Assembly: GCA_963757225.1 (NCBI GenBank)
Contig: CAVWQU010000017.1
Location: 8,866 to 72,865 of the forward strand
Reading direction: 5' to 3'
Length of the DNA: 64,000 nt
DNA from: an uncultured Actinomycetota bacterium
GTDB taxonomy: Bacteria > Actinomycetota > Actinomycetes > Actinomycetales > Dermatophilaceae
The notes under the pieces are model-generated. The model did not search any database. It saw nothing but the letters and a program-made list of their open reading frames with translations, and was not told the origin of the DNA. The position numbers and the translations under genes were made by a program. Below, one piece after another: positions 1,030 to 64,000 of this stretch; the first letter of the stretch is position 1; every line of letters starts with the position of its first letter.

Positions 1030-1762
1030 CTACGACCCGGCCAACCGGGCCACCGCATCGAGGACCACCCGGAAGGCGGGCACGGCCGGCTCGATGAGCT
1101 CGTCGTGGCCGACACCGGGCAGCCGGAGCAGCTCGGGCCGATTCTCCAGGGCCTGCCGCTTGTCGTAGCTCACCGACACCGTCAAGCGGGACGGTGTCGT
1201 CGGCGTCGCCGTGGACCAGGACGACCGGCGCGAGAGGGACGTGGGCGGCGGGGTCGGCCGCCGTCCAGGACGCCGAGTCGGCGTCGCCCATGAACCGGGC
1301 CGCCGCTCCGTCGCCCAGCCCGAGCTCGTGCGTCAGCGCGAGGTCGACGCAGCCGGCGAGCGCGACGACTCCCGCCAGCGACCGCGCCTCGGGTCGGGTC
1401 GCCGCGAGCGTGACGAGGTGGCCGCCGGCCGAGTGACCCACGAGGACGAGGCGGTCCGGCAGGGCCGGGTCGGCCAGGACCGCGTCGACCGCCGCCGAGA
1501 TGTCGGCGAACGTCCCGGGCCAGCCGCCCCCCCGCATACCGGTCCGTCGGTACTCGACCACGGCGACGTGGTGCCCGGCACCGGCGAAGGCCTGCGCCTG
1601 GGGCGCCGCGTGGGTGCGGTCCCACTCGGGCTTCCAGAAGCCGCCGTGGACGACGACGACGGTCGTGCCGGTGGGATCGGTGGTGGGCATCCGGACGTCG
1701 TAGACCTGGTCGGGGTCGATCCCGTATGCGGTCGTATGGCTCGGGGGTGCGACGTCGGGCAT
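1030..1762 (-). pseudogene. Alpha/beta hydrolase (esterase/lipase) with apparent +1 frameshift near 1180
   Basis: HGGFW, GHSAGG and HGDADDTVP motifs. The C-terminal His motif (GVGHDELIEP) continues in another frame to TAG at 1030. Length 733 = 3n+1. Confidence 0.75.
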
Positions 1763-1793
1763 GAGGGGACCCTGCCATGGGTAGCGTGCCTTC

Positions 1794-2537
1794 GTGGCGG
1801 TCACCTGGCTGACGGCGTTCCTCGACACGGCGGCTCCGGAGGCGGTGGCGACCGAGGCGTACTGGGTCGCCGTCACCGGCTGGCCCCTGTCGGCGCGGCG
1901 GGGCGTGGACGGGGAGTTCGCCAGCCTGGAGCCGCCGGACGGGGACGGTCCGGTGCGGGTCCAGGTCGTCGGGGCGCAGCCTCCGGGCGGGATGCACCTC
2001 GACGTGCACACCGACGACGTGGACGGGCTGGTCGCGGCGGCGAGGGGGCTCGGGGCCGAGCTGCACGACACCGGGCAGGGCTACGTGGTGGGCCGCTCGC
2101 CCGGCGGGCTGGTCTTCTGCATCGTCCCGCACCGCAGCGGGCAGCGCCCCGGACCGGTGGGCTGGCCGGGTGGGGCGAGCCTCGTGGACCAGGTGTGCCT
2201 CGACATCCCGCCGGCCGTCTTCGACGCCGAGGCCGGGTTCTGGTCGCAGCTGACGTCGTGGCCGCACGTGGAGGGCGGCTCGCCGCAGTTCGACCGCATC
2301 CTGCCGCCGCCGGGCCAGCCGCTGCGGGTGTTGCTGCAGCGCACCGACGACGAGGCCGCACCGGTGCGGATGCACCTCGACCTCGCCAGCGAGGACCGCG
2401 ACGCCGAGGTCGCTCGGCACGTGGAGCTGGGTGGCCGGGTGGTCCGCCGCACCGACAACTGGACCACCCTGCTCGACCCCAGCGGTCGGGCCTACTGCGT
2501 CACCCGGCGCAGCCCGGTCTCCGGCACGCTGCCCTGA
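1794..2537 (+). CDS. VOC/glyoxalase-like family protein (tandem domains)
   Basis: Two repeats with MHLDV/MHLDL and LDPSGRAYC motifs. Confidence 0.8.
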   Translation: MAVTWLTAFLDTAAPEAVATEAYWVAVTGWPLSARRGVDGEFASLEPPDGDGPVRVQVVGAQPPGGMHLDVHTDDVDGLVAAARGLGAELHDTGQGYVVGRSPGGLVFCIVPHRSGQRPGPVGWPGGASLVDQVCLDIPPAVFDAEAGFWSQLTSWPHVEGGSPQFDRILPPPGQPLRVLLQRTDDEAAPVRMHLDLASEDRDAEVARHVELGGRVVRRTDNWTTLLDPSGRAYCVTRRSPVSGTLP

Positions 2538-2540
2538 GGT

Positions 2541-7000: not shown

Positions 7001-9004
7001 GTGCCCTCCGGGAGGCATCGCGCCGGGCGCTACCGCTACGGCTCCTGGGACGGCGGCGCCGACCCGCTGGCGCCACCGTTCGACGTCCGGGCGGCGGTGG
7101 ACGAGATCGGGCACGACGTCATGGAGGGCTCCTCGCTGCGCGAGGCCATGGAGCGCCTCATGCGGCGCGGTCTCGGCGACCGGGCCGGGCTCGACGAGCT
7201 GCGCCGCGAGCTGGCCCGCCGGCGGCGTGAGGTGGAGCGGCGCGGCAACCTGGCCGGAACCCTCGACCAGGTCCGCGAGGAGCTCGACCAGGCACTGTCC
7301 GCTGAGCGGGAGTTCCTGGCCGGCCGCGACGGCGACGACGCCCGGCTCGCCGAGATGTCGCTCGACACGTTGCCGGAGGACACCGCCGGCCAGGTCCGGG
7401 AGCTGAACGACTACCAGTGGCGCAGCGCCGAGGGGCAGCAGCACTGGCAGAACGTGCTCGACCTGCTGCGCAAGGAGGTTCTCGACGCGCAGTTCGCCGG
7501 GATGAAGGAGGCCCTCTCGGGTCAGAACCCGGCCGCCATGGAGGCGGTCCGGGAGATGATGGCCGACCTCAACGCGTTGCTGGCCAAGCACGCTCGCGGG
7601 GAGGACACGACCGAGGACTTCGACCAGTTCATGGAGAAGCACGGTGAGTTCTTCCCCGAGAACCCGAAGGACGTCGACGAGCTCATCGACGCGCTCGCCC
7701 GGCGTCAGGCCGCCGCCGAGCGGATGATGCGCTCGCTCTCTCGCGAACAGCGCGAGGAGCTCGCTGGCCTCATGCAGCAGGCCATGCAGGACATGGGCCT
7801 CGAGATGGAGATGACCCAGCTGGCCGACTCGCTCCGGTCGCTGCGACCCGGGATGTTCCGCGGCCGCCAGCCGGCCGACATCGACGGCAACGAGTCCCTC
7901 GGCATGGGCGACGCGGTCGGCGCCGTGGCCGACCTCGCCGACCTCGAGGCGCTGGAGAACCAGCTGTCCCAGGCGTCGGCGCTCGGCAGCGGCCTCGACG
8001 ACGTCGACGTCGACACCCTGGAGCGGCAGTTGCCCGGGTCGTCGGTCCGCGACTTCGAGGCGCTGCGCGAGCTCGAGCGCGAGCTGGAGCGACAGGGCTA
8101 CCTCCGGTCCGACTCCGACGGACTGTCGTTGACCCCCAAGGCGTTGCGGCGGTTGGGCGAGACGGCGCTGCGCCGGATCTTCCAGCACCTCGACGCCGAC
8201 GCGTCCGGCTCGCACGTCGACCCGCGGTCGGGCGGCGCCGACGAGCGCACCGGCGCATACCTGCCGTGGGAGTTCGGCGACGAGCGGCCGCTCGACGCGG
8301 TACGGACGGTCCAGAACGCCGTGCTGCGCCGCGCGGGTTTAGGTATGCCTCGCGACGGTGAGGATCGCGGCATACGGCTCGAGGTCGAGGACTTCGCCGT
8401 AGCCGAGACCACGCGCCGCACGGGCGCGGCGGTCGCACTCCTCGTGGACCTGTCGTTCTCGATGATCCAGGAGGGCCGCTGGGGCCCCATGAAGCAGACG
8501 GCGCTCGCGCTGTCGCACCTCATCCAGAGCCGGTTCCGCCAGGACGCACTGCAGATCATCGGGTTCGACCGGACCGCGCGACCGCTCACCCCGATGCAGC
8601 TGGCCGAGGTCGAGCCGCAGTGGATCCAGGGCACCAACCTCCACCACGCCCTGCTCCTCGCGGGTCGTCACGTGCGCCGCCACCCCGAGGCCGAGCCCGT
8701 CGTCCTCATCGTCACCGACGGTGAGCCGACTGCCCACCTCGAGGCGGACGGCCTGCCGGTGTTCCAGTGGCCCACGACCCCAGAGACGGTCCGCGCCACT
8801 GTCGGCGAGGTCGACGCGCTGACCCGCTACGGGGTCGCGCTGAACTTCTTCCTTCTCGGCGACGACCCGGGCCTGGCCCGGTTCGTCGACTCGGTCGCGC
8901 GGCGCAACGGCGGACGGGTCTTCACCCCCGACGTCGGCCGGCTCGGTGAGTACGTCGTCGCCGACTACCTTCGCGCCCGTGCGGGACGGCGCCGTTCGGC
9001 CTGA
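7001..9004 (+). CDS. VWA domain protein (Rv0959-like), partner of the AAA ATPase
   Basis: MIDAS DLSFS, GTNLHHAL, VTDGEPT. Confidence 0.88.
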   Translation: MPSGRHRAGRYRYGSWDGGADPLAPPFDVRAAVDEIGHDVMEGSSLREAMERLMRRGLGDRAGLDELRRELARRRREVERRGNLAGTLDQVREELDQALSAEREFLAGRDGDDARLAEMSLDTLPEDTAGQVRELNDYQWRSAEGQQHWQNVLDLLRKEVLDAQFAGMKEALSGQNPAAMEAVREMMADLNALLAKHARGEDTTEDFDQFMEKHGEFFPENPKDVDELIDALARRQAAAERMMRSLSREQREELAGLMQQAMQDMGLEMEMTQLADSLRSLRPGMFRGRQPADIDGNESLGMGDAVGAVADLADLEALENQLSQASALGSGLDDVDVDTLERQLPGSSVRDFEALRELERELERQGYLRSDSDGLSLTPKALRRLGETALRRIFQHLDADASGSHVDPRSGGADERTGAYLPWEFGDERPLDAVRTVQNAVLRRAGLGMPRDGEDRGIRLEVEDFAVAETTRRTGAAVALLVDLSFSMIQEGRWGPMKQTALALSHLIQSRFRQDALQIIGFDRTARPLTPMQLAEVEPQWIQGTNLHHALLLAGRHVRRHPEAEPVVLIVTDGEPTAHLEADGLPVFQWPTTPETVRATVGEVDALTRYGVALNFFLLGDDPGLARFVDSVARRNGGRVFTPDVGRLGEYVVADYLRARAGRRRSA

Positions 9005-24724: not shown

Positions 24725-24765
24725 CGGTATGCCCGGTGCCCCTGCGTGGGGCACCGGGCATACCG
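24725..24765. terminator. Perfect 18-bp hairpin between convergent genes, carrying inverted GTATGC/GCATAC copies
   Basis: CGGTATGCCCGGTGCCCC tgcgt GGGGCACCGGGCATACCG. Confidence 0.8.
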
Positions 24766-38784: not shown

Positions 38785-38865
38785 CCCAGGTTCCGCCGCC
38801 GGGCCCTTGAGGGCGGCGGGCGAGTCGGACCCGATTTCGCAGCGCCGCGTCCTATCCTGCGGCGC

Positions 38866-39204: not shown

Positions 39205-39223
39205 CCCCGGCTGAGGCCGTCGG

Positions 39224-41065: not shown

Positions 41066-41072
41066 GGCGTCC

Positions 41073-41954: not shown

Positions 41955-41996
41955 CGCGAGGACCCCTCTCGGATCGGTATGCGGCGGACGCTGGGC

Positions 41997-43388: not shown

Positions 43389-43471
43389 CGTTGCCAACCC
43401 TTCGCGAGGATCGCCGGGACGGTGTGTCCAGCGATGGACGTGGGGGGAACCGTAGGACCGGCGCAGACATG

Positions 43472-43489
43472 ATGGCAAACGTTTGCCAT
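43472..43489. promoter_or_regulatory. LacI-type operator
   Basis: Perfect palindrome ATGGCAAACGTTTGCCAT with central CG. Weaker copy TGGCATCGTTGCCA at 43383-43396 overlaps the MFS start. Confidence 0.8.
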
Positions 43490-43499
43490 AATTTGCCAC

Positions 43500-44531: not shown

Positions 44532-44544
44532 ATCTCCAGCCCCG

Positions 44545-45303
44545 TCAGGCCGGACGGCCCATGCTCCGTTCGATGCCGCTCGCGGCGACCTGCAGCGCCG
44601 ACACCAGGCGAGGGCGGTCGCGCCGCAGGCTGGGCACGACGATGCCCACGGACGCGACGACCTCGGTGCCCTGGCGGATCGGCACCGCCACGGAACAGGC
44701 GCCCAGGGTCATCTCCTCGACCGTCGTCGCATACCCCTCGGCCCGGACCCGACGCAGCTGCTCGGCGAGGAGACCGGGCGCGGTGACGGTATGCCGGGTC
44801 ACCCGCCGCAGCCTCGAGCGCAGCACTTCTCGCTGGACCGGCTCCGGAGCGAACGCCAGGAGCACCTTGCCGACTCCGGTGCAGTGCAACGGGAGCCGGG
44901 AGCCGACCGTGCTGACGATGGGCACGGAGGCGCGTCCGGACAGCCGTTCCACGTAGAGGACCTGGTGGCGGTCGCGCACGGCCAGGTGCACGGTGGCGAG
45001 GGTCGCCGCATACACGTCGTGGAGGAACGGGGACGCGGCCTGCCGCAGCCCGGTCTGGACCGGGGCCAGCAGGCCGACGTCCCAGATCCGCCGTCCGACG
45101 GCGTAGCGGCCGTCCGCCAGACGGGTCAGCGCGCCCCAGTCGACGAGCTCGCCGACCAGCCGATGGGCCGTCGGTATCGGCATCCCGGCCCGGGCGGCCA
45201 GCTCGGTCAGGCTGAGCATCCGGTGCCGCTGGTCGAACGCGCCGAGCAGCGACAGGGCGCGGGACGTGACGGTGGTCCCCGGCGTGGAGGTGTTGCCGGC
45301 CAT
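44545..45303 (-). CDS. pcaR: IclR-family regulator, PcaR-like
   Basis: SRALSLL..TAHRL HTH, GSRLPLHCTGVGK; divergent from pcaH. Confidence 0.85.
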   Translation of the reverse strand: MAGNTSTPGTTVTSRALSLLGAFDQRHRMLSLTELAARAGMPIPTAHRLVGELVDWGALTRLADGRYAVGRRIWDVGLLAPVQTGLRQAASPFLHDVYAATLATVHLAVRDRHQVLYVERLSGRASVPIVSTVGSRLPLHCTGVGKVLLAFAPEPVQREVLRSRLRRVTRHTVTAPGLLAEQLRRVRAEGYATTVEEMTLGACSVAVPIRQGTEVVASVGIVVPSLRRDRPRLVSALQVAASGIERSMGRPA

Positions 45304-45311
45304 CCGACCCC

Positions 45312-45326
45312 TTCCACTCAGCGGAA
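45312..45326. promoter_or_regulatory. Candidate IclR/PcaR operator
   Basis: TTCCACTCAGCGGAA imperfect palindrome in the pcaR-pcaH spacer. Confidence 0.6.
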
Positions 45327-45371
45327 CCTCATTCTGACGCACACCCGTCCCCGGGGCCTACCGTGACGGGC

Positions 45372-46145
45372 ATGACGACGACCGTCTCCTCCGACTCGGC
45401 CGCATCGACCCAGGCCGAGGTGAGCCGGGAGATCGCCGACATCGCCACCGCGTACCAGGCCTCCGGCGCCGAGGAGACGCAGCCGCGGCTGGACTACGCG
45501 CCGTACCGGAGCAGCCTGCTGCGGCACCCGACCAAGGACCTGCACCACGCCGACCCGGAGACCATCGAGCTCTGGGCACCGTGCTTCGGGCAGCGCGACG
45601 TGGCCCCCCTCGAGGCGGACCTCACCATCCAGGACGGCGGCGAGCCGCTGGGGGAGCGCATCGTGGTCACCGGGCGCGTGCTCGACGGTCAGGGCCGACC
45701 GGTCGCCGGCCAGCTGGTCGAGATCTGGCAGGCCAATGCCGGCGGTCGCTACATCCACAAGCGTGACCAGCACCCGGCCCCGCTCGACCCGCACTTCACC
45801 GGTGTCGGGCGCTGCCTGACCGCGCCGGACGGCACCTACCGGTTCCAGACGATCAAGCCGGGGCCGTACCCGTGGAAGAACCACCACAACGCCTGGCGCC
45901 CCGCGCACATCCACTTCTCGCTCTTCGGGACCGACTTCACGCAGCGCATGGTCACCCAGATGTACTTCCCCGGTGATCCGCTCTTCGCCCTGGACCCGAT
46001 CTACCAGGCCATCACCGACCAGCGGGCGCGCGACCGGCTCATCGCGACCTACGACCACGACGTCACCCAGCACGAGTGGTCGACCGGCTATCGATGGGAC
46101 ATCGTTCTCACTGGGAGCCAGAAGACCCTGATGGAGGAGTCGTGA
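45372..46145 (+). CDS. pcaH: Protocatechuate 3,4-dioxygenase beta subunit
   Basis: EIWQANAGGRYIH, KPGPYPW, WRPAHIHFS, TQMYF. Confidence 0.95.
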   Translation: MTTTVSSDSAASTQAEVSREIADIATAYQASGAEETQPRLDYAPYRSSLLRHPTKDLHHADPETIELWAPCFGQRDVAPLEADLTIQDGGEPLGERIVVTGRVLDGQGRPVAGQLVEIWQANAGGRYIHKRDQHPAPLDPHFTGVGRCLTAPDGTYRFQTIKPGPYPWKNHHNAWRPAHIHFSLFGTDFTQRMVTQMYFPGDPLFALDPIYQAITDQRARDRLIATYDHDVTQHEWSTGYRWDIVLTGSQKTLMEES

Positions 46146-46699
46146 CCGCGCTCGTGCCCACGCCCGGACAGACCGTCGGGCCGTTCTTCGGGTATGCCTT
46201 GCCGTTCGACCGCGACAACGAGCTGGTGCCGCTGTCGCACCCGTCCGCCGTTCGGTTGCACGGCCGGGTGACCGACGGACACGGCGTCGGGGTGCCCGAC
46301 GCGCTGCTCGAGCTGTGGCAGGCCGCACCCGACGGTTCCGTGGTGCAGCAGGACGGTTCGTTGCACCGGGACGGCTGGACGTTCACCGGGTGGGGTCGCG
46401 CGTCCACCGACGCCGACGGGCACTACGTCTTCACGACCCTGCGCCCGGGCGCGACCGAGGCGGGCCGGGCGCCGTTCTTCGCCGTGACCGTGTTCGCCCG
46501 GGGGCTGCTGAACCGGCTCTTCACCCGCGCCTACCTCCCCGACGACGCGGAGGCCCTGGCCGGCGACCCTCTGCTCGGGTCGCTCGACGCCGACCGCCGG
46601 GCGACGCTGGTCAGTCGCGCGGACGAGCACGGGTACGCCTTCGACGTGGCGCTCCAGGGCGACGGCGAGACGGTGTTCCTGCGGTACCCGGGCCAATGA
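46142..46699 (+). CDS. pcaG: Protocatechuate 3,4-dioxygenase alpha subunit
   Basis: TPGQTVGPFF, LELWQA, FARGLL, LQGDGETVF. Confidence 0.95.
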   Translation: MTALVPTPGQTVGPFFGYALPFDRDNELVPLSHPSAVRLHGRVTDGHGVGVPDALLELWQAAPDGSVVQQDGSLHRDGWTFTGWGRASTDADGHYVFTTLRPGATEAGRAPFFAVTVFARGLLNRLFTRAYLPDDAEALAGDPLLGSLDADRRATLVSRADEHGYAFDVALQGDGETVFLRYPGQ

Positions 46700-47937
46700 C
46701 CGACCTCTTCTGGCCCGGTGACGAGCGCGCCGGCGACACGATGTCCGAGTGGGCCTTCCTGGAGGCCATGGTCCGCGTCGAGGAGAGCTGGCTCGCCGGT
46801 CTGGTCTCCTTCGGGATCGCCCCGTACGCGGCCAAGGCGGACCTCGCCGGGCTCGTCGGACCGGCGGACGTCGAGGATCTTGCGACCGCTGCCGAGGCGG
46901 GCGCGAACCCGGTGATCCCCCTGGTGTCGTTGCTGCGCGGGCGGGTTCGCGAGGCCAACGAGGAGGCGGCGACCTGGCTGCACCGCGGGCTCACCAGCCA
47001 GGACGTGGTCGACACGGCGATGGTGCTCTGCTGTGACGAGGCGCTCGGCCGGGTGGAGTCTGACCTTCGTGACCAGGTCGCCGCGCTGGTTCGGCTCGCC
47101 GACGAGCACCGGACGACGGTGATGGCCGGCCGAACCCTGACGCAGCACGCGGTCCCGATCTCCTTCGGGCTGAAGGCATCCGGCTGGCTGGTCGGCGTCC
47201 TCGACGCCGCCGACGCGGTCGGGAGCGCGCGAGCCGCGCTCGCGGTCCAGGTTGGCGGAGCCGCGGGAAGCTTGGCCGCGACGACCGAGCTCGCCCGCGC
47301 GGCCGGCCTGGCCGACCCGCCGGCGGTCGCCATGGCCATGGCGGAGGGTCTGGCGGCGGCTCTCGGACTCCGGACGCGGCCGCCGTGGCACACGTCGCGA
47401 CGCCCGATGACGCGGGTCGGTGATGCTCTGGTAGCCGCAACGGACTCCTGGGGCCGGATCGCGTCGGACGTGGCGACCCTCGGGCGGCCCGAGATCGGTG
47501 AGCTGTCCGAGCCGGCGGTGGCCGGTCGCGGCGGCTCCTCGACCATGCCGCAGAAGCAGAACCCCGTGCTGTCCGTGCTGGTCCGCCGGGCCGCGATCAC
47601 CGCCCCCGGCCTGGCGGCCACCCTGCATACGGCAGCGGCGCTGGCCGTCGACGAGCGACCGGACGGGTCGTGGCACGCCGAGTGGGCGACGCTGCGGACC
47701 CTCGCCCGCCACGCCGTCGTGGCGGCGTCGCAGACCACCGAGCTGCTCGCCGGCCTCCGGGTCAATGCGGATCGGATGACGGAAACCGTTGTGCGTGCAC
47801 GCGGCTCGCTGCTCGCCGAGCGCACGTCGATCACCGGGGACGACACCGGCGAGCCCGGCGACTACCTCGGCGCAGCCGACGCGGTCATCGACGCGGTGGT
47901 GCGGCGTGCTCGCGGCCGTCTGGAGGAGCCCGCATGA
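46696..47937 (+). CDS. pcaB: 3-carboxy-cis,cis-muconate cycloisomerase
   Basis: HRGLTSQDVVDT, GRTLTQHA, GSSTMPQKQNP fumarase-superfamily signature. Confidence 0.9.
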   Translation: MTDLFWPGDERAGDTMSEWAFLEAMVRVEESWLAGLVSFGIAPYAAKADLAGLVGPADVEDLATAAEAGANPVIPLVSLLRGRVREANEEAATWLHRGLTSQDVVDTAMVLCCDEALGRVESDLRDQVAALVRLADEHRTTVMAGRTLTQHAVPISFGLKASGWLVGVLDAADAVGSARAALAVQVGGAAGSLAATTELARAAGLADPPAVAMAMAEGLAAALGLRTRPPWHTSRRPMTRVGDALVAATDSWGRIASDVATLGRPEIGELSEPAVAGRGGSSTMPQKQNPVLSVLVRRAAITAPGLAATLHTAAALAVDERPDGSWHAEWATLRTLARHAVVAASQTTELLAGLRVNADRMTETVVRARGSLLAERTSITGDDTGEPGDYLGAADAVIDAVVRRARGRLEEPA

Positions 47938-49178
47938 GCCTTCGCCTCGTCGGGACGCAGCTGAGTGACCCCGGACCGGTGGGCGCCCGCAAGCCCCTGC
48001 TCGTTCTCGGCCCGTCGCTGGGGACCTCGGTCCACGCGCTGTGGGCCCCCTGCATCGGCGGGCTCGCCGACCGGTTCCACCTGGTCGGCTGGGATCTGCC
48101 CGGCCACGGTGCGAGTCCGGCGGCGAACGGGTCGACGATGGACTTCGCCGACTTGGCTGGCGCGGTCGTCGACCTCGTCGACGCGGTCCAGGAGGAACGG
48201 GGAGAGCCGACCGGACCGTTCACCTACGCCGGTGACTCGGCCAGCGGAGCAGTCGGCCTCCAGCTGTTCCTCGACGCCCCGGACCGGGTGCGCGCCGCCG
48301 TGATCCTCTGCAGCAGCGCGGCGTTCGGGGTGATGCCCGGCTGGCTGGACCGAGCGGCCGCCGCCCGCGCCAGCGGGACCGCGTCCCTGGTGCCGCTGTC
48401 CCTGCAACGGTGGTTCACCGACGGGTTCGCCGACCGCGAACCGGAGCGGGTGTCGGCGCTCCTGCACTCGCTGCGCGAGGTGGACGACGAGAGCTACGCC
48501 CAGGTCTGCGAGGCCCTGTCCCGGTTCGACGTCCGGAACCGTCTCGGAGAGATCATCGTCCCGGTCCTCGCGGTCGCCGGCTCCGAGGACGTGGCCACGC
48601 CGCCCGCCCTGCTGGAGGAGATCGCCGCCGGCATCCCCGGTACGCGGCTCATGGTCCTCGACGGCGTCGCGCACCTGCCGCCGGCCGAGGCGCCGTCGGT
48701 GGTCGTCAAGCTGCTCGCGCAGCACCTGGAGCCGCGGGAGGACGCGACCACCCGCATACCCTCCGTCCCCGAGCCCGTGGCGGACCCCCTCTACGAACAG
48801 GGAATGGCCGTCCGCCGCGCGGTCCTGGGCGACGCCCACGTCGACCGGGCGAACGCCGCGCTCACCGACCTGACCGGCGACTTCCAGGAGCTCATCACGC
48901 GCTACGCCTGGGGGTCGATCTGGACCCGGCCGGGCCTCGACCGGCGCAGCCGCTCGATGATCACCCTCACCGCCCTCATCGCTCGCGGTCACCACGAGGA
49001 GCTGGCCATGCACCTGCGGGCCGCCCGCACCAACGGCCTGACCGACGACGAGATCAAGGAGGTCATCCTCCAGAGCGCGATCTACTGCGGCGTCCCGGAC
49101 GCCAACACCGCCTTCCGCGTGGCCCAGACCGTGCTGTCGGAGGCCCCGCAACCCGTACCGACCGAGGAGCAGCCCTGA
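47934..49178 (+). CDS. pcaL: Fused 3-oxoadipate enol-lactonase / 4-carboxymuconolactone decarboxylase (PcaD-PcaC)
   Basis: N-terminal hydrolase (PSLGT, DLPGHG); C-terminal CMD domain (FQELITRYAWG, AIYCGVP). Confidence 0.9.
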   Translation: MSLRLVGTQLSDPGPVGARKPLLVLGPSLGTSVHALWAPCIGGLADRFHLVGWDLPGHGASPAANGSTMDFADLAGAVVDLVDAVQEERGEPTGPFTYAGDSASGAVGLQLFLDAPDRVRAAVILCSSAAFGVMPGWLDRAAAARASGTASLVPLSLQRWFTDGFADREPERVSALLHSLREVDDESYAQVCEALSRFDVRNRLGEIIVPVLAVAGSEDVATPPALLEEIAAGIPGTRLMVLDGVAHLPPAEAPSVVVKLLAQHLEPREDATTRIPSVPEPVADPLYEQGMAVRRAVLGDAHVDRANAALTDLTGDFQELITRYAWGSIWTRPGLDRRSRSMITLTALIARGHHEELAMHLRAARTNGLTDDEIKEVILQSAIYCGVPDANTAFRVAQTVLSEAPQPVPTEEQP

Positions 49179-50377
49179 TGACGCACCACACCGGTGAGTC
49201 CGCCTACGTCTACGCGGCGGTGCGGACGCCGTTCGGCAAGTTCAACGGAGGTCTGGCCGGGGTCCGCCCCGACGACCTGGCCGCCACGGCGATGCGCGGG
49301 GTGCTGGCGCGGGTACCGGACCTGGACCCCCAGGACATCGGCGACGTCGTCTGGGGCAACGCCAACGGTGCCGGCGAGGACAACCGCAACGTCGGCCGGA
49401 TGGCCGTGCTGCTGTCCGGGCTCCCAGTCACGCTGCCCGCGACGACGGTCAACCGTTTGTGCGGATCGAGCCTCGACGCGGCCATGATCGGGTCGCGGAC
49501 GGTCGAGTCCGGCGACACCGACGTCGTCCTGGTCGGTGGGGTGGAGTCGATGACCCGCGCGCCGTGGGTGCTGCCCAAGCCCGCTCGCCCGTTCCCCGCC
49601 GGCGACATGACGGCGGTGTCGACGACGCTCGGGTGGCGTCTCGTCAACCCGAGGATGCCGGCCGAGTGGACGGCGTCCCTGGGGGAGTGCAACGAGCAGC
49701 TGCAGGAGAAGTTCGCGATCTCTCGGGAGCGGCAGGACGCGTTCGCGACGCGTTCGCACCAGCTGGCCGACGCGGCGTGGAGCGAGGGGTTCTACGACGA
49801 CCTCACGGTCGCCGTGCCGGGCACGGAGGTCACGCGCGACGAGTCGATCCGGCCGGGCACGTCGATGGAGAAGCTGGCCACCCTGACGCCGTCGTTTCGC
49901 GTGGAGGGCACCATCACGGCCGGTAACGCGTCGCCCCTCAACGACGGTGCCTCGGCCGTGGTCCTCGGTTCTCGAGCCGCGTCGTCGCGGATCGGCAGCG
50001 CGCCTCTTGCTCGGGTCGCCGGCCGGGCGGCGGCCGCGCTCGAGCCGCAGATGTTCGGCTACGCGCCGGTCGAGGCGGCCGAGAAGGCCTTGCAGCGAGC
50101 GGGGATCGGGTGGTCGGACATCGGAGCCGTCGAGCTGAACGAGGCGTTCGCCGTGCAGTCCCTGGCCTGTGTCGACGCCTGGGGCGTGGATCCCGACATC
50201 GTCAACGCGAAGGGCGGCGCCATCGCCATCGGCCATCCACTCGGGGCCTCCGGTGGTCGCATCCTCGGGACGCTGGTCAAGCGGATGCGCGACGGCGGTC
50301 ACCGGTGGGGTGTCGCCGCGATCTGCATCGGCGTCGGCCAGGGTCTGGCGGTCGTGCTCGAGAACGAGGACGCGTGA
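49178..50377 (+). CDS. pcaF: 3-oxoadipyl-CoA thiolase
   Basis: NRLCGSS, GVESM, NEAFA, GHPLGASG, CIGVGQG. Confidence 0.9.
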   Translation: MTHHTGESAYVYAAVRTPFGKFNGGLAGVRPDDLAATAMRGVLARVPDLDPQDIGDVVWGNANGAGEDNRNVGRMAVLLSGLPVTLPATTVNRLCGSSLDAAMIGSRTVESGDTDVVLVGGVESMTRAPWVLPKPARPFPAGDMTAVSTTLGWRLVNPRMPAEWTASLGECNEQLQEKFAISRERQDAFATRSHQLADAAWSEGFYDDLTVAVPGTEVTRDESIRPGTSMEKLATLTPSFRVEGTITAGNASPLNDGASAVVLGSRAASSRIGSAPLARVAGRAAAALEPQMFGYAPVEAAEKALQRAGIGWSDIGAVELNEAFAVQSLACVDAWGVDPDIVNAKGGAIAIGHPLGASGGRILGTLVKRMRDGGHRWGVAAICIGVGQGLAVVLENEDA

Positions 50378-51096
50378 TGTCGCGGGTCTCGGTCGTGGTC
50401 GACCCGGACGAGGCGGTGGCGGGCATCGCCGACGGTTCCACGGTTCTGGTCGGTGGCTTCGGCATGGCCGGTATGCCGGTCGACCTCATCGACGCCCTCA
50501 TCCGACAGGGCGCGTCGGACCTCACGGTCGTGTCCAACAACGCCGGCAACGGCGACACCGGTCTGGCCGCCCTGCTGGCGGCCGGCCGGGTGCGGAAGAT
50601 GGTCTGCTCGTTCCCGCGTCAGTCCGACTCGTGGGTGTTCGACGGGCTGTACCGGGCGGGCAAGGTGCAGCTCGAGGTGGTCCCGCAGGGAAACCTGGCC
50701 GAGCGGATGCGGGCCGCCGGAGCGGGGATCGGGGCGTTCTTCTCGCCGACCAGCGTCGGCACCCCGCTCGCTGAGGGCAAGGAGACACGGACCATCGACG
50801 GCCGCGACTACGTGCTGGAGCTCCCGATCCGCGGTGACGTCGCCCTGATCCATGCCCACGTGTCCGACGCGATGGGAAACCTCGTCTACCGCAAGACCGC
50901 CCGCAACTTCGGGCCGGTGATGGCGGCCGCGGCGGCGTTGACCATCGCCGAGGTGTCGCGGGTCGTGCCCGTCGGCGGCCTGGACCCGGAGAACGTCGTC
51001 ACGCCGTCGATCTTCGTCAACCGGGTCCTGGACCTCTCGGGAGTCGGGGCCGGCAGGGGGTCGGCTCGAGAGCCGGCCCGAACGGAGGCGTCATGA
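50377..51096 (+). CDS. pcaI: 3-oxoadipate CoA-transferase subunit A
   Basis: GGFGMAG, SNNAG, PQGNLAERMRAAGAGI, KTARNF. Confidence 0.92.
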   Translation: MSRVSVVVDPDEAVAGIADGSTVLVGGFGMAGMPVDLIDALIRQGASDLTVVSNNAGNGDTGLAALLAAGRVRKMVCSFPRQSDSWVFDGLYRAGKVQLEVVPQGNLAERMRAAGAGIGAFFSPTSVGTPLAEGKETRTIDGRDYVLELPIRGDVALIHAHVSDAMGNLVYRKTARNFGPVMAAAAALTIAEVSRVVPVGGLDPENVVTPSIFVNRVLDLSGVGAGRGSAREPARTEAS

Positions 51097-51764
51097 CCGT
51101 CGAGCACACCGAGCGCGGGCCGCTCGACCGCAAGGAGGTCGCCGCGCTGGTCGCGCGCGACATCCCGCCGGGATCCTTCGTCAACCTGGGGATCGGCCAG
51201 CCGACGATGGTCGCCGACTTCCTCGACCCCGCTTCCGGGGTCATCCTGCACACCGAGAACGGGATGCTCGGGATGGGACCGGCCGCGGTGGGCGACCAGA
51301 TCGACCCCGACCTGACCAACGCGGGCAAGATCCCCGTCACCGAGCTGCCGGGCGCCTCGTACTTCCACCACGCCGACTCGTTCGCGATGATGCGCGGCGG
51401 GCACCTCGACGTCTGTGTCCTGGGTGCGTTCCAGGTCTCGGAGCGCGGCGACCTGGCCAACTGGCATACCGGCGCACCGGACGCGATCCCGGCCGTCGGC
51501 GGGGCGATGGACCTGGCGATCGGGGCCAAGCAGACCTTCGTGGTGATGACCCTGTTCGCCAAGGACGGCACGGCGAAGCTCGTGCCCGAGTGCACCTACC
51601 CATTGACCGGAGTGCACTGTGTCACCCGCGTCTTCACCGACTACGGCGTCTTTCAGATCACGCCCGACGGGGTGCTGGTCTCGCAGACCTACGGGATCTC
51701 GTTTGCCGAACTGGCAACACGAGTTGACGTGCCCTTGTCGATGGGTGAGACGCTGCCCGGGTGA
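51093..51764 (+). CDS. pcaJ: 3-oxoadipate CoA-transferase subunit B
   Basis: VNLGIGQP, HTENG, RGGHLD, GGAMDL. Confidence 0.92.
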   Translation: MTVEHTERGPLDRKEVAALVARDIPPGSFVNLGIGQPTMVADFLDPASGVILHTENGMLGMGPAAVGDQIDPDLTNAGKIPVTELPGASYFHHADSFAMMRGGHLDVCVLGAFQVSERGDLANWHTGAPDAIPAVGGAMDLAIGAKQTFVVMTLFAKDGTAKLVPECTYPLTGVHCVTRVFTDYGVFQITPDGVLVSQTYGISFAELATRVDVPLSMGETLPG

Positions 51765-52414
51765 GCCACCACGACCACGATCCCGACCCCACCACCCTGC
51801 ACACCCCTGAGTTCTGGGACGACCGCTACGGGTCGACCGAGGCCCTGTGGAGTGGTCGGCCGAACCAGCGGCTCGTGGAGAACGTGGCGGGTCTGAGCCC
51901 CGGTGTCGCGCTCGAGATCGGGTGCGGCGAAGGTGCGGACGCGATCTGGCTCGCGCAGCAGGGGTGGACCGTCACGGCGGTCGACGTGTCGAGGGTCGCG
52001 CTGGAGCGGGCAGCGAGCCACGCCGCCGAGACCGACCTCGCCGCGGCCGATCGGATCACCTGGAGCCAGCGAGACCTGCGCGAATGGGCGCCCGAGCCGG
52101 AGTCCTACGACCTGGTGAGCGAGCACTTCCTGCACCTGCCGAGTGCGGTGCGGGTGCCTCAGCACGCGCGGCTGGCGGCGGCGGTCAAGCCCGGCGGGAC
52201 CCTCCTCATCGTCGGGCACCACCCGGGCGACAACGCGATGATGCAGCGGCCCCACTCGGACGACCTCTTCTTCACCCCGGAGGAGGAGGCGAGCCGGCTT
52301 CCCGCCGAGGAGTGGGACGTCGTCGCGACCTCACCGACGCGGCCGGCCCGCGACCCGGACGGCCACGAGATGGATCTGACCGACGCGGTCGTGCGGGCGG
52401 TCCGGAGGAGCTGA
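51761..52414 (+). CDS. Class I SAM-dependent methyltransferase
   Basis: FWDDRY..WSGRPN, LEIGCGEGAD, VDVS. Confidence 0.88.
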   Translation: MSHHDHDPDPTTLHTPEFWDDRYGSTEALWSGRPNQRLVENVAGLSPGVALEIGCGEGADAIWLAQQGWTVTAVDVSRVALERAASHAAETDLAAADRITWSQRDLREWAPEPESYDLVSEHFLHLPSAVRVPQHARLAAAVKPGGTLLIVGHHPGDNAMMQRPHSDDLFFTPEEEASRLPAEEWDVVATSPTRPARDPDGHEMDLTDAVVRAVRRS

Positions 52415-52560
52415 CCCGCCGCGTCGCGACGGGAACGTTGACGCCACGGCCACGCAGGCGACCGAAATCCCCGAGTTCCGTCGCCCGCGTGGACGTTCCG
52501 TGGCTGTCGGTGAGGAGGACGCTCGGCGGGTTCCTGATACGCACCCCGGAGGGCGGGCGG

Positions 52561-52704
52561 TCAGTCGTCGGCGGCGTCAGGGTCCTCTTCGGGCTCGAAG
52601 GTGTTCGGCTCGCCGGTGGTCCGCTCGATGCCGTCACCGCTACCGCCCTCGATCGGTCCGTCGGTGTCGGTCTCGGTCGCGGGGGTGGTCTCGTCGTGGC
52701 TCAT
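52561..52704 (-). CDS. Small acidic hypothetical protein (47 aa)
   Basis: RBS GAGAAGGGG then ATG; MSHDETTP...GEPNTFEPEEDPDAADD with GC-rich third positions. Confidence 0.55.
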   Translation of the reverse strand: MSHDETTPATETDTDGPIEGGSGDGIERTTGEPNTFEPEEDPDAADD

Positions 52705-52781
52705 CGTGGACCCCTTCTCGTCTGATGTATGCCGTTCTCCTACCCGCGTCGTCGAGCCGGCAACCGTTCCGCGCTGGCCGC

Positions 52782-52863
52782 GTGCACATGGTCTGCGCAG
52801 GTCGTCCCACGATCCACAGGTGGCGCGGCCGCTCTGGTCGGCGCTCCCTCGCGCCGCGAGCAT
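52782..52863 (+). promoter_or_regulatory. Tad promoter element, copy 2 (upstream of flp)
   Basis: GTGCACA-n14-CGTCCCAC-n2-TCCACAG; GAGCAT 45 nt after the TCCACAG start, matching copy 1. Confidence 0.6.
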
Positions 52864-52920
52864 CGTCCCGACCAGGCCGGACCGTCCGGCTGACGCCGAG
52901 CGGCGTGATGGCGAGAGGGG

Positions 52921-53157
52921 ATGTCGATGCGGGTTTCGATGCGTGCCCGAGTGCGGGCGAGGGGGCGGGCGAGACTGCGGGCGAGGGGGCGGCAGGTCGG
53001 CCGGCTTCGGTCGGCCGGCATGACGACGGCGGAGTATGCGGTGGGCACCTTGGCGGCGGTCGCCTTCGCCGCCGTGCTGCTGGCGGTCGTCAAGTCGGGC
53101 GCGGTCATGTCCGCGCTGACGGGCATCATCACGACGGCGCTGGGTTCGGCCGGCTGA
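52921..53157 (+). CDS. Flp-type major pilin (DUF4244)
   Basis: Arg-rich leader, then G|MTTAEYAVGTLAAVAFA prepilin motif. Confidence 0.88.
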   Translation: MSMRVSMRARVRARGRARLRARGRQVGRLRSAGMTTAEYAVGTLAAVAFAAVLLAVVKSGAVMSALTGIITTALGSAG

Positions 53158-53159
53158 CC

Positions 53160-53510
53160 ATGCGCGGTGGCCGGCGGGACCCTGGCATGGTGACGGCCGA
53201 GCTCGCGCTCGCGCTGCCGGTCGTCGTCCTCGTCCTCGTGCTCGGCCTCGGGGCCATCCGCGTGGGGATCGACCAGGTCCGGTGCGTCGACGCCGCCCGG
53301 CTCGCGGCTCGCGCCCTGGCGCGAGGCGACGCGGAGGCGGCCGCTCGCGCGGTGGCGGTCTCCACCGGCCCGCCCGGTGCGGTGGTCGTCCTCGGTACCG
53401 GCGGCTCGGAGGTCTCGGCCACCGTCTCGGCCGACCGAGACCTGGCCGGCGGGCGCGTCCTCACGGTTCGGGGTTCGGCGACCGCCGCCCGCGAGGAGAA
53501 GGAGCCGTGA
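53160..53510 (+). CDS. tadE: TadE-family minor pilin
   Basis: G|MVTAELALALP, RCVDAARLAAR. Confidence 0.85.
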   Translation: MRGGRRDPGMVTAELALALPVVVLVLVLGLGAIRVGIDQVRCVDAARLAARALARGDAEAAARAVAVSTGPPGAVVVLGTGGSEVSATVSADRDLAGGRVLTVRGSATAAREEKEP

Positions 53511-53914
53511 GCCAGGGGGTCCGCGGGCTCGCGGGCGCCCGCGGGCCGGCCCGGTCGCGGCACCGCGGCTCGGGGACGGTGCTGCTCGTGGGGGTCGTCG
53601 GGGCGCTGGTCGCCCTGACCGTGGGCGCCCTCTGGGTCGTGAGCGCCGTGGTGGCCTCCCACCGTGCTCAGTCGGCGGCCGACCTCGCGGCGCTGGCCGC
53701 GGCGGCCGTGCTCGTCCGGGGCGACTCGTCCGCTCGCGCCTGCGAGCGGGGGACGGCGATCGCCGCCCTCAACGGTGCACGCCTCGCGTCGTGCCGAGCC
53801 GGTCCGGACCTCACGGTCGAGCTGGTCGTCGACGTCCCGTCGACGGTGTCACGCGTGGGGACCGCGACGGCGCGGGCTCGAGCCGGGCCGGCGACCTCGG
53901 GCGCCGGGCCATGA
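53507..53914 (+). CDS. Rv3654c-family TadE-like minor pilin
   Basis: RG|SGTVLL, HRAQSAADLAALA, ARARAGP. Confidence 0.85.
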   Translation: MSQGVRGLAGARGPARSRHRGSGTVLLVGVVGALVALTVGALWVVSAVVASHRAQSAADLAALAAAAVLVRGDSSARACERGTAIAALNGARLASCRAGPDLTVELVVDVPSTVSRVGTATARARAGPATSGAGP

Positions 53915-61270: not shown

Positions 61271-62878
61271 ATGACCACCACGGAAACCAGTCACGCCGAC
61301 TCGCTGCACGCGGAGCAAGCGGGCTACAAGCAGTCCCTCGGCAGCCGGCACGTCCAGATGATCGCCATCGGCGGCGCCATCGGCACCGGCCTCTTCCTCG
61401 GCTCGGCGTCGCGGCTCGCCAGTACCGGACCGGCGCTGCTGTTCAGCTACGCGTTCGTCGGTGTCATCGCCTACCTCCTCATGCGGGCCCTCGGCGAGCT
61501 GGTCCTGCACCGCGCCACGTCCGGCGCGTTCGTGTCGTACATGCGGGAGTTCTACGGCGAGAAGGCCGCCTTCGTCACGGGCTGGATGTACTGGCTGAAC
61601 TGGGCGCTGACCGGCATCGCCGAGCTCTCGGCGGTCGGCCTCTACGTCCAGTTCTGGTTCCCGACCATGCCGACCTGGGCGACCGTGCTGATCGCGCTCG
61701 CCGTCGTCCTGTTCATCAACCTGCTCTCGGCGCGGGCCTTCGGCGAGTTCGAGTTCTGGGCGTCGATCCTCAAGGTCGCCGCGATCGTCGTCTTCCTCGT
61801 CGTCGGCGTCATCGTCGTGCTCTTCAAGCTCGACATCGGCGGCCACCAGGCCGGCATCCAGAACCTCTGGAGCAACCCCGGCGGGTTCTGGCCGAGCGAG
61901 GACCCCTTCCACTGGTACGGCCCGATCCTCGTCATGTCCGGAGTCGTCTTCGCGTACGCCGCCATCGAGATGGTCGCGATCGCCGCCGGTGAGATGGAGA
62001 ACTCCGACAAGGAGGTCCCCAAGGCGATCAACGCCGTGATCTTCCGGATCGCCGTCTTCTACTGCGGCTCGATCCTGCTCATCGTCTGCATGCTCCCGAC
62101 GAGCGAGTTCAAGTCGGGCATCAGCCCCTTCGTGACCATCTTCGACCGGATGGGCCTCGACTGGATGGCCGCCGCGATCCAGGCGATCCTCATCGTCGCG
62201 GCGATGTCGAGCCTCAACTCCGGGCTGTACTCGACCGGCCGGGTCCTGCGCAGCCTCGGCATGTCGAAGCAGGCTCCGAGGTTCACGCTAAAGATGAGCA
62301 GCTCGGGGGTGCCGTGGGCCGGCATCGTCATGACCTCGGTCGTCTTCGTCTTCGGGGCGGTCCTCAACGCGGTCACCCCCGACGCCTTCGAGATCGCCCT
62401 GGAGGCGGCGGCGCTCGGCGTCCTCTTCACGTGGGCAACGATCTTCATCTGCCAGCTGAGACTGAGAAAGCTGGTCAACCTCGGCATCATCCCCAAGAGT
62501 CCCTTCCAGGCGCCCGGGTATCCCTGGACGAGCTATGTCGGCCTCGCCTTCCTCGTCCTGGTCGTCATCGGTCTCGCCGTCCAGGGCTGGCAGCACTCGC
62601 CCTACTTCTGGAAGAAGACCGACTTCCTCGTCGTGGTCCTCGGGATCCCCCTCATCGCGGTGGTCCTCCAGCTCGGCTGGATGGTCGTGCGCCCCAAGGT
62701 CGTGGCCAACACCGGTGACCGGCTCAAGGCGGTGTGGTCCGACACCGGTCCCACCTACGGCACCAGGCTCATCGACCTGGAGGACGAGCCGATCGACCCG
62801 CTGCTCCTGCCACCGATCGACCCTGACCTGCTCGAGCCGCCGCACGACAACCAGCCGCACGACAAGGACGACTCGTGA
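61271..62878 (+). CDS. APC amino-acid permease, L-asparagine permease (AnsP)-like
   Basis: RHVQMIAIGGAIGTGLFLG, FGEFEFW, SSLNSGLYSTGR. Confidence 0.9.
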   Translation: MTTTETSHADSLHAEQAGYKQSLGSRHVQMIAIGGAIGTGLFLGSASRLASTGPALLFSYAFVGVIAYLLMRALGELVLHRATSGAFVSYMREFYGEKAAFVTGWMYWLNWALTGIAELSAVGLYVQFWFPTMPTWATVLIALAVVLFINLLSARAFGEFEFWASILKVAAIVVFLVVGVIVVLFKLDIGGHQAGIQNLWSNPGGFWPSEDPFHWYGPILVMSGVVFAYAAIEMVAIAAGEMENSDKEVPKAINAVIFRIAVFYCGSILLIVCMLPTSEFKSGISPFVTIFDRMGLDWMAAAIQAILIVAAMSSLNSGLYSTGRVLRSLGMSKQAPRFTLKMSSSGVPWAGIVMTSVVFVFGAVLNAVTPDAFEIALEAAALGVLFTWATIFICQLRLRKLVNLGIIPKSPFQAPGYPWTSYVGLAFLVLVVIGLAVQGWQHSPYFWKKTDFLVVVLGIPLIAVVLQLGWMVVRPKVVANTGDRLKAVWSDTGPTYGTRLIDLEDEPIDPLLLPPIDPDLLEPPHDNQPHDKDDS

Positions 62879-63708
62879 CCAGGCGGTTCCGGCGGCTGTG
62901 GCCCGCTGCCGTCGTCGCGACCCTGTCCGCCGTGCTAGCCGGCTGCTCGTCCGGCGGTGCCATCCCGACGCCCCAGGCCACCGGCACCGGGAAGATGACG
63001 ATCGGCATCTCCTTCGACCAGCCCGGGATCGGGCTCAAGAGCGGGAACACCTACAGCGGGTTCGACGTCGAGACGGCCAAGTACGTCGCCGCGGCCATGG
63101 GTGTCCCGCCGGAGAACATCACCTGGAAAGAGGCCAACCCAAGCCAGCGCGAGAACCTCCTGATCGACAAGTCGGTCGACATGGTCTTCTCCTCGTACTC
63201 GATCACCGACGCGCGCAAGCAGAAGGTCGACTTCGCCGGGCCGTACTTCGTGGCGCACCAGGACCTGCTGATCCGGCGCAACGACGCCGAGATCACCGGC
63301 CCGGAGAGCCTCGACGGCAAGAACCTCTGTTCCGTGGCCAACACGACGTCCGCCGCCTACGTCAAGGAGCACTACATCGGCCGGATCCAGCTCCAGGAGT
63401 ACCAGACCTTCTCCGAGTGCGTCGACGCCCTCGCCAAGGGGCAGATCGACGCGGTGACGACCGACGACGTGATCCTCGCCGGCTTCGCCGCCCTGCCCGA
63501 GTACAAGGGCCTGCTCAAGGTGGTCGGCAAGGGGTTCACCGACGAGCGCTACGGGGTCGGCCTGCCCAAGGGCGACAGCGCGACGGTGGCCAAGGTCAAC
63601 GACGCCCTGAAGAAGTACATCGCCGACGGCACCTGGAAGACCGTGCTGGACAACACGGTCGGGCCGTCCGGCTACGTCATCCCGAGCCCGCCGACGCCGG
63701 GGAGCTAG
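62875..63708 (+). CDS. Glutamate ABC transporter substrate-binding lipoprotein (GluB-like)
   Basis: Lipobox LAGC, FDQPG, YSITDAR, FAGPY, VTTDDVIL, YGVGL. Confidence 0.88.
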   Translation: MTRRFRRLWPAAVVATLSAVLAGCSSGGAIPTPQATGTGKMTIGISFDQPGIGLKSGNTYSGFDVETAKYVAAAMGVPPENITWKEANPSQRENLLIDKSVDMVFSSYSITDARKQKVDFAGPYFVAHQDLLIRRNDAEITGPESLDGKNLCSVANTTSAAYVKEHYIGRIQLQEYQTFSECVDALAKGQIDAVTTDDVILAGFAALPEYKGLLKVVGKGFTDERYGVGLPKGDSATVAKVNDALKKYIADGTWKTVLDNTVGPSGYVIPSPPTPGS

Positions 63709-63724
63709 CACGGCCCCGCCCGGG

Positions 63725-64000
63725 GCGGACCTCGGGAGGCTCCTCGCCGCATACCCGCCGTTCGACCGTCTCGACGAGGAGACCCGCGCCGCGCTCGCCG
63801 GTGCAGCGCGGGTCGACGAGTATGCGTCGGGCGAGCTGGTGCTCGACGCGTTCGCCACGGCGAGTGTCGAGGTCTACGTCGTCGTCAGCGGGCGCGTAGA
63901 GCTGTGGAACGACCCGGCGCGGCTCGGCGGGCCCCCAGACGAGGTGCTCGGTCCGGGTGGCCTCTTCGGCTTCTCGGCGATGCTCACCGAACGCTCCATC
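63725..64000 (+). CDS. N-terminal cNMP-binding domain protein (possibly cNMP-CBS-nucleotidyltransferase), partial; start codon not identified
   Basis: Manual translation ADLGRLLAAYPPFDRL...VYVVVSGRVEL...LGPGGLFGFSAML is typical of a CAP effector domain. Confidence 0.6.

Follow-up and report, generated by a model that had tools for sequence, protein, structure and literature searches.

A highly over-represented hexamer, GCATAC, with strand-specific spacing in the genomes of many Dermatophilaceae and a possible Chi-like function

The window considered here is the whole 64,000-nucleotide stretch of contig CAVWQU010000017.1 (C17; positions 8,866 to 72,865 of the forward strand) from an uncultured member of the Dermatophilaceae, and its subject is the six-base word GCATAC, read as GTATGC on the other strand, which is dispersed over the whole window. 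The source assembly (GCA_963757225.1, labeled G000) comprises 4,265,052 bp in 49 contigs at about 71% GC and is 72% complete. A self-trained model called 3,832 genes in it (85% coding) and missed some, so that "non-coding" counts are approximate except in short intergenic gaps. The original prediction, made from the letters of the window alone, had counted about 51 copies by eye (28 and 23 in the two orientations); this count proved exact, and each copy that it located was found in place. In window coordinates, the features are as follows.

1534..63754, plus strand: 28 dispersed exact copies of GCATAC, starting at 1534, 4498, 5169, 5284, 8255, 8370, 11084, 12224, 16894, 17297, 21637, 24758, 29404, 29701, 32012, 32529, 33285, 39508, 40594, 44729, 45008, 47625, 48754, 51464, 55560, 55642, 59624 and 63749
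1724..63825, minus strand: 23 dispersed exact copies (GTATGC on the plus strand), starting at 1724, 3933, 6233, 8343, 13516, 15211, 18757, 22030, 22086, 24727, 31303, 34099, 41821, 41977, 44789, 46192, 50471, 52727, 53034, 57112, 57535, 60657 and 63820
8370..8375, plus strand: copy using the rare isoleucine codon ATA, in frame 1; the copy at 48754 is of the same class
24725..24765 (C17:33591), no strand: inverted pair of words as hairpin arms between convergent genes, with 10 further complementary bases inside and 2 outside
33285..33290, plus strand: copy 15 nucleotides upstream of the called start codon at 33300, with its TA at -12/-11
34540..53914, plus strand: ssd-type tadA/tadB/tadC, DUF4244 flp and tadE-like genes, given as context and not as signal

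In the window, the 51 copies compare with 7.46±2.70 in dinucleotide shuffles (shuffle maximum 15), against which the earlier base-composition expectation of about 15 was too high. Eight further CATAC cores lack the leading G, and GATAC/GTATC is several-fold rarer than CATAC/GTATG (12 versus 59), both as first described. Genome-wide, 3,300 copies occur, about one per 1.3 kb, and GCATAC is the top-ranked hexamer under an order-1 Markov model, at 6.1-fold over expectation. The enrichment also withstands a codon-aware null: in 3,669 called genes, 2,524 copies were observed versus about 577 in ten within-gene synonymous-codon shuffles (4.4-fold), a null that is conservative because the inflated rare codons are retained in it. 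All six frame classes are raised, by 1.7- to 10-fold per class, and the forcing of rare codons that had been proposed for the two ATA-isoleucine copies recurs throughout the genome (132 observed in this class versus 18.9 in the synonymous null). Approximately 40% of the genome's ATA/TAT trinucleotides (3,300/8,303) belong to the word, and within called genes it accounts for 51% of TAT and 37% of ATA codons. Density is higher still in short intergenic gaps (1.5-1.7 copies/kb versus 0.71/kb in genes), and between genes 649 copies were observed versus 109-134 expected.

The information is confined to the six bases and soft flanks reaching from about -2 to +1. In the source genome, the -1 base is C in 68%, G in 27%, and A in 1% of copies, and the +1 base is C in 57%; no distal information was detected within -20/+25, and the flanks do not extend the word, itself asymmetric, into a palindrome. 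No longer conserved repeat or RNA element was found around the copies, and no Rfam match in the window. A repetitive extragenic palindrome or terminator repeat family was rejected, given that 2,524 of the 3,300 copies lie in called genes and that nothing is conserved past these flanks. Close inverted pairs involve 231 of 2,963 copies. The pair at 24725..24765 would act as a terminator. Some 15 other intergenic inverted pairs are short-spaced (GCATAC-N3-8-GTATGC) and without a hairpin stem (e.g., C11:58741, C21:37109, C25:57935 and C29:3725); the one at C21:37109 resembles a CsoR-type operator. A promoter role was rejected as a general explanation, with only about 20-30 copies at -15/-16 from a start codon and no T at -7 overall; the copy at 33285, one of 20 genome-wide placed 15 nucleotides before a start, nevertheless likely doubles as a leaderless -10 element. 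No functional class was evident by eye among the 40 genes most enriched for the word. Gaps longer than 6.5 kb without it are mostly lower-GC blocks of accessory-looking genes, the word being depleted in accessory islands. Contigs C3/C45 and C6/C16 carry near-duplicate gene sets (smc, recG and others), which suggests some strain mixing in the assembly.

For comparison across genomes, those with at least 300 copies/Mb are termed rich and those with fewer than 150 poor; genome sizes were rounded, densities are without GC correction, and the 7-mer survey and the tally of the class outside the family include five genomes marked unpublished, which are nowhere the sole basis of a claim. Among 200 Dermatophilaceae genomes, 117 are rich (median 623/Mb, maximum 1,806), 77 are poor (median 56), and 6 lie between, although two 2.6 Mb genomes just above 300/Mb may represent background. 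Named rich records include Lapillicoccus, Terrabacter (T. terrae, 572/Mb), two Intrasporangium isolates (I. oryzae, 660), Ornithinimicrobium (O. panacihumi, 391), and Leekyejoonella, while Janibacter, Mobilicoccus (M. pelagius, 65), and Intrasporangium zincisolvens (45) are poor and two Pedococcus/Phycicoccus isolates are of intermediate density. A congener of the source genome, G016, has 4 copies in 420 kb. In a midpoint-rooted FastTree phylogeny of six proteins from 40 genomes, the poor genomes are scattered over seven or more distinct positions, some directly beside rich ones (G016 with G006; G079 with G143); one old origin followed by repeated loss is favored, because different genera share sites, on a tree without an outgroup root. 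Outside the family, none of 218 genomes of the class exceeds about 330/Mb; family f52 (e.g., G346, G321, G432) shows a modest excess over the reversed word, approximately 1.2-1.5-fold and up to 306/Mb, possibly a weaker signal. The -1 base differs by lineage, being C in the clade of the source genome and G in most other genera, and the survey used the hexamer because the 7-mer CGCATAC is misleading for this reason. Several poor genomes are higher in GC than their rich tree neighbors (0.749 versus 0.725 for G016/G006; 0.74-0.75 for G148/G159/G181), and others lower (0.67-0.68; 40 comEC-region loci). Phage TJE1 carries 5 copies versus 7.7 expected, and none of the six loci above 62% GC among 78 viral loci examined was word-rich; one viral contig of 55-57% GC (L418/L419) shows GCATAC about 4.5-5-fold over order-1 expectation, with a repeated inverted pair.

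Codon contexts and orthologues show how the word arises. The codon before Tyr-Ala ends in G in 870/1700 cases (51%) versus 653/3378 (19%) before Tyr followed by other G-starting codons, and the codon before His-Thr in 417/665 versus 317/796 in the comparison set; in both cases C is drawn toward G at an end of the word (positions 1 and 6). The TAT share of Tyr codons is 72% in G-TAY-GCG and about 4% in other contexts; with A at -1 the pull is lost, occupancy falling to 3.5%. Orthologue alignments show the word in rich genomes at positions occupied by GCC-TAC, G-TAC-GC, or ATC-Ile in poor ones, as in one leuS column with the word in 15/18 rich and 0/12 poor genomes; in total, 236 copies were counted in 424.7 kb of orthologous genes from 25 rich genomes versus 9 in 378.2 kb from 19 poor ones. 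Across genera, sites are retained in 726 of 1,294 same-residue comparisons (0.56) versus a class baseline of 0.23, with pairs not independent, and four control words stayed within 0.09 of baseline. Amino-acid pairs are not clearly shifted by the word: Tyr-Ala occurs at 21.5 versus 18.7 per 10,000 residues in rich and poor genomes, and the control Phe-Ala at 28.5 versus 24.1.

These data bear on the view that the word is a neutral by-product of a context-dependent mutation hotspot or of a codon-pair habit. The commonest routes to it are indeed C-to-T on either strand, and GCGTAC, GCACAC, and GCATGC are below order-2 expectation, but this view does not fit the C-to-G pulls, the ATA-Ile and GCA-TAC found where poor genomes have ATC-Ile and GCC-TAC, or the enrichment between genes. 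A single deamination hotspot is insufficient because several neighbor words converge on GCATAC by both transitions and transversions, as the original prediction had argued from the window. Nor can point mutation create the strand-specific spacing over 1 kb described below, and a neutral origin is largely refuted and highly improbable. The word would seem to be maintained by selection, not mutation.

The strongest clue to its mode of reading came from the spacing of copies in coding DNA, where pair counts were compared, by strand, with an expectation drawn from sites reachable by synonymous change. Copies are more even than random filling of these sites (variance/mean 0.90 versus 1.118±0.032 at 2 kb), and the deficit is entirely same-strand: same-strand pair ratios start at 0.34-0.61 (6-1000 bp), rise through 0.80 (1-1.5 kb) and 0.95 (1.5-2 kb), and reach 1.04-1.10 at greater distances, while summed opposite-strand ratios are 1.02-1.37 from 60 bp outward, with one bin of 0.84 among both arrangements. 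Neighboring copies alternate strand 2022 times versus 1229 same-strand cases. None of 12 control entries (11 distinct words) showed the same-strand pattern, and in a scan of 1,376 hexamers GCATAC was the most same-strand-depleted (z -13.8; opposite +2.1), the next five all overlapping it. The same result came from 57 loci in other rich genomes, of which 43 lie outside the genus (same 0.29/0.63/0.68, opposite 0.94/1.04/1.16). The polar spacing becomes visible only with genome-scale counts. Window pairs closer than 1 kb split evenly (14 same, 14 opposite); adjacent copies in the window alternate strand in 31 of 50 cases.

Reading at the RNA level, in the mRNA sense, was rejected, since, for pairs in genes of opposite orientation, it is still the DNA strand that governs the repulsion (0.2-1.5 kb: same DNA strand 0.60/0.45/0.74, opposite DNA strand 1.03/1.08/1.10). 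Strand balance per contig is tighter than chance whatever the GC skew (chi2 7.1 with 25 degrees of freedom for 25 contigs longer than 70 kb), and these contigs show no replichore or orientation skew, in agreement with the balance first noted in the window; a KOPS (FtsK-orienting polar sequence) or primase site was rejected for want of the strong replichore skew. A per-strand cost proportional to the square of gap length reproduces the pair ratios (modeled 0.40/0.48/0.52/0.63/0.77/0.88 versus observed 0.39/0.52/0.60/0.59/0.80/0.94), with a saturating-reach model fitting more poorly at 0.5-1 kb. The 1-2 kb range need not be a tract length, because under the squared-gap model a mean per-strand spacing of 2.5 kb can yield it. 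It is very probable that reading of the word is strand-specific and that selection or drive maintains it, a conclusion considerably firmer than any on the process involved.

Other words stand out in poor genomes. The palindrome CGTACG shows a separate excess, like that of the cyanobacterial highly iterated palindrome (HIP), in several GCATAC-poor actinobacteria, the GTA share of Val codons in C-GTN-CG being 53% in G258, 32% in G073, 23% in Streptomyces loci, and 5% in G016 (elsewhere 2.1%, 1.9%, 2.8%, and 0.2%). No description of CGTACG was found in a single literature search. A switch of specificity to it in poor genomes was rejected, given no self-spacing in G258, G073, or the Streptomyces loci and only mild self-spacing in G016; a search of low power for further polar words came up empty both in G016 and in six pooled sets of poor loci. 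Codon-aware word lists were drawn up for loci of G073, G074, and G112, for pooled Propionibacteriales-type loci, for pooled G148/G159/G181/G099, and for Pseudonocardiaceae. Near-neighbor words head these lists, namely GGCGTA (95 versus 47.5; 46 versus 20.5; 112 versus 57), CATCCG (136 versus 70), and CGGATA (32 versus 11.7); these three are possible dialects, with no polar spacing seen at this sample size.

The explanation that we tentatively prefer, at somewhat less than even confidence, is that GCATAC signals an enzyme moving along DNA to stop or to switch, in one direction only, and so resembles Chi in function. Such an enzyme would load at scattered places, probably DNA breaks, and then move along one strand, and a polar reader protein would halt at the first site met, each strand's copies being spaced independently. 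Stopping at the first site is the suggested mode: for a reader that set off from a site and covered the DNA beyond it, convergent pairs would be redundant, and such depletion is seen only below 60 bp. The process would be two-ended and not tied to fork direction, as when two-ended breaks, or DNA that has entered the cell, are resected. AdnAB, present through AdnA in all 70 genomes searched (NucS in 5/5), is the default candidate reader only and carries no diagnostic residues; for the mycobacterial enzyme, information on a Chi phenomenon is stated to be lacking (PMC5314763). Like Chi, GCATAC is asymmetric and over-represented in core genes, and its spacing suggests one-strand reading.

A number of results weigh against a Chi-like signal. 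Chi is often replichore-skewed (PMC5443536), unlike GCATAC, and no scanning domain of the RecC/AddB type, such as the AddB motif Ia region that reads Chi (PMC3321194), co-varies with the word. No self-spacing was seen in E. coli K-12 among its first 100 plus-strand Chi sites (1.08/0.85/1.28/0.91/0.90; coefficient of variation 1.02) in a comparison of low power without codon correction, so that same-strand spacing is not a demonstrated property of textbook Chi. Within genes, there is a shortage of GTATGC...GCATAC pairs less than 60 bp apart (8 observed, ratio 0.3-0.4). Among 21 rich and 21 poor genomes, no AdnA or AdnB column separates the classes (best difference 0.52, at most 6 of 11 poor lineages departing at one column), a single-column test that scattered independent losses would escape; rich genomes differ from one another in AdnA motif Ia, both classes have intact Walker A/B motifs, and no rate relaxation of AdnA/B was found in 13 poor-rich pairs. 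None of the break-repair genes compared tracks the word (RecC in 12/40 rich and 18/40 poor genomes, SbcD in 39/40 and 31/40, Ku in 40/40 and 39/40), nor does NucS. The source-genome list of P-loop proteins gave no lead to a reader, and a gene-loss comparison with G016, covering 800 kb of 4.58 Mb (about 18%), yielded 277 orthologues and 56 synteny-gap candidates with no evident DNA enzyme by eye.

A link to DNA uptake was proposed in the original prediction from the proximity of a Tad pilus locus. This link was not borne out: the word is genome-wide, and rich genomes resemble poor ones in comEC, comEA, and the tad genes. The ssd-tadA-tadB-tadC-DUF4244-tadE set of the window is, by its gene content, an ordinary actinobacterial locus, with TadA present in 19/19 rich and 10/10 poor loci examined (loci that were retrieved by TadA) and the nearest matches of the window protein found in Lapillicoccus records (83%, 67%), then Intrasporangium and Terrabacter. 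Canonical Flp occurs in 65/117 rich and 31/77 poor genomes, and comEC in 197/200 family genomes of both classes; comEC was missed in the source genome because the assembly is 72% complete, a motif scan having also missed rpoB, rpoC, tuf, and atpD. Actinobacterial tad clusters often co-occur with ComEA/ComEC, and "uptake sequence" is not mentioned in that work (PMC4322843). A shikimate/protocatechuate (pca) aromatic-acid cluster with regulators, at 38017-52704, splits tadC from the flp/tadE genes, and parts of this insertion lie at the same place in locus L001. A second, lower-GC Flp/Tad locus with canonical Flp pilins (C11:11005-18196), apparently fragmented in the gene calls, lies inside an 8.6 kb word-free stretch.

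GCATAC could be a self-DNA signal for natural transformation, subject to uptake drive as are the DNA uptake sequence (DUS) and the uptake signal sequence (USS), and read on the entering single strand. Its density of one per 1.3 kb resembles the roughly 1,000 bp of USS (PMC7811141), there is no skew, accessory islands are avoided just as foreign genes lack uptake sequences (PMC2817400), hairpin pairs and lineage flank dialects (-1 C versus -1 G) occur, and competence genes are intact family-wide. However, USS-bearing DNA is taken up irrespective of orientation (PMC1939737), no ComEA or ComEC column is diagnostic of class or relaxed in rate, and the core, at six bases, is short and accompanied by hardly any information farther out. 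A direct comparison used 850 DUS in 768 kb, from 47 non-overlapping Neisseria-like loci drawn from 62 of at least 6 kb. Taken together, these DUS repel alike in both orientations; 438 of them lie in inverted pairs, a share inflated by the symmetry-forcing search pattern. The 412 unpaired ones give 0.88 same and 1.09 opposite at 0.08-1 kb, a noisy estimate, versus 0.61 and 1.14 for unpaired GCATAC. Strand-specific spacing of DUS is at most weak, with a possible slight polar trend. An uptake role for GCATAC is unlikely.

The same pair statistics as under the Chi-like explanation would arise from a one-way barrier for a randomly loaded motor, and GCATAC might accordingly be a polar site for a chromosome-organizing protein, whether a barrier to or a loader for a loop-extruding or translocating motor. 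Preferences at the flanks are graded, which points to a binding protein; copies are evenly spaced and denser in short intergenic DNA, and their sites are conserved in the manner of HIP1 (PMC5861425). On the other side, no precedent was found, MksF/JetA (PF11855) occurs in 8/40 rich and 10/40 poor genomes, a plain double-stranded-DNA-binding nucleoid protein would be orientation-blind, and a role that can be dispensed with is suggested by the several losses among free-standing lineages. Such an organizing site seems distinctly unlikely.

A one-strand DNA modification site, either as a new-strand repair mark with one orientation per daughter duplex or as the basis of modification-biased repair drive, would account for the equal strand density and for same-strand-only redundancy at about 1 kb. 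We take the penultimate A of GCATAC to resemble that of one-strand N6-methyladenine motifs and count it for this possibility, and a methylation-directed model exists for HIP1 (PMC4390886). Against it, none of the six Pfam methyltransferase families tested is common to rich genomes (over cut-off, PF01555 2/4, PF02384 3/4, PF00145 2/4, PF07669 3/5, PF02086 2/5 and PF20473 1/5), in a small sample of 4-5 rich genomes per family that did not cover unusual modifying enzymes. The single-contig rich genome G143 has a D12-type methyltransferase gene only, a motif scan found no DNA methyltransferase in the 72% complete source genome, and MutL is absent from 5 of 5 rich genomes searched. A modification site is thus rather improbable, and the methylase or repair origin offered as the other half of the original prediction gains no support. 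In the window, a DUF7059-MTS-DUF7782 methyltransferase with an NPPF motif is encoded at 59686-61149 on the plus strand, with homologues in rich and poor loci alike.

Returning to the Chi-like signal, GCATAC can be proposed, with considerable reserve, as the first Chi-type signal of actinobacteria and one of a new sort: unskewed, forming two independent, self-spacing strand networks that would halt or switch an enzyme traveling in either direction, acquired within the Dermatophilaceae and since lost several times, and read by AdnAB, which is currently regarded as possibly independent of Chi, or by an undescribed strand-reading protein. Neither GCATAC itself nor any actinobacterial word of the Chi or uptake kind was found described in the literature searched, which comprised few subscription journals, no REBASE, and no supplements (survey supplement tables could hold the hexamer). 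Dermatophilaceae are said to include the main phosphorus-removing bacteria of wastewater plants, and the word could matter for genetic tools in these organisms. Chi-like control of actinobacterial end resection is stated as unknown in PMC5314763, and GCATAC offers a defined six-base candidate with natural rich and poor controls. More generally, testing spacing strand by strand offers a means of classifying iterated genome words by their mode of reading.

Among known systems, Dam methylation at GATC provides the strand signal of MutHLS repair through a dispersed short site that acts over about 1-2 kb. GCATAC is likewise dispersed and short, but it is non-palindromic, and MutL occurs in 0/5 and a D12-type methyltransferase in 2/5 rich genomes. 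With HIP1 of cyanobacteria (PMC5861425, PMC4390886) it shares hyper-abundance, conservation of sites in and between genes, and loss in some lineages. The suggestion of a HIP1-like signature was right as to a real iterated genome word, but the strand-specific spacing sets GCATAC apart from HIP1 and, less firmly, from DUS. HIP1 is palindromic and tied to orphan methyltransferases, whereas GCATAC is asymmetric, read by strand with polar spacing, and without a shared methyltransferase among the six families tested. The likeness to DUS of Neisseriaceae and USS of Pasteurellaceae (PMC7811141, PMC1939737, PMC2817400) extends to a density of one per 1-1.3 kb, equal use of both strands without skew, all reading frames, absence from accessory or foreign genes, some hairpins, and lineage dialects. 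It ends at a core of 6 instead of 9-10 bases, at the few copies in close inverted pairs, at the lack of a link to the competence and pilus genes compared (comEC, comEA, ssd-tad genes, and Flp), at peptides not clearly enriched where uptake-sequence tripeptides are about doubled, and at same-strand-only repulsion in place of orientation-blind action on double-stranded DNA. With Chi of RecBCD and AddAB (PMC3321194, PMC5443536), GCATAC has in common that it is short, non-palindromic, over-represented, and found inside genes, with polar reading implied; it differs in lacking replichore skew, in its strong same-strand spacing, and in the absence of RecC from 28/40 rich genomes searched, while AdnA keeps its ATPase motifs. 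Filing it as either DUS or Chi is disfavored because neither small sample matches the strength of its signature. Taken together, GCATAC is a real, selected genome word at the level of the Dermatophilaceae, with a strand-specific spacing not seen at such strength in the DUS or Chi controls.

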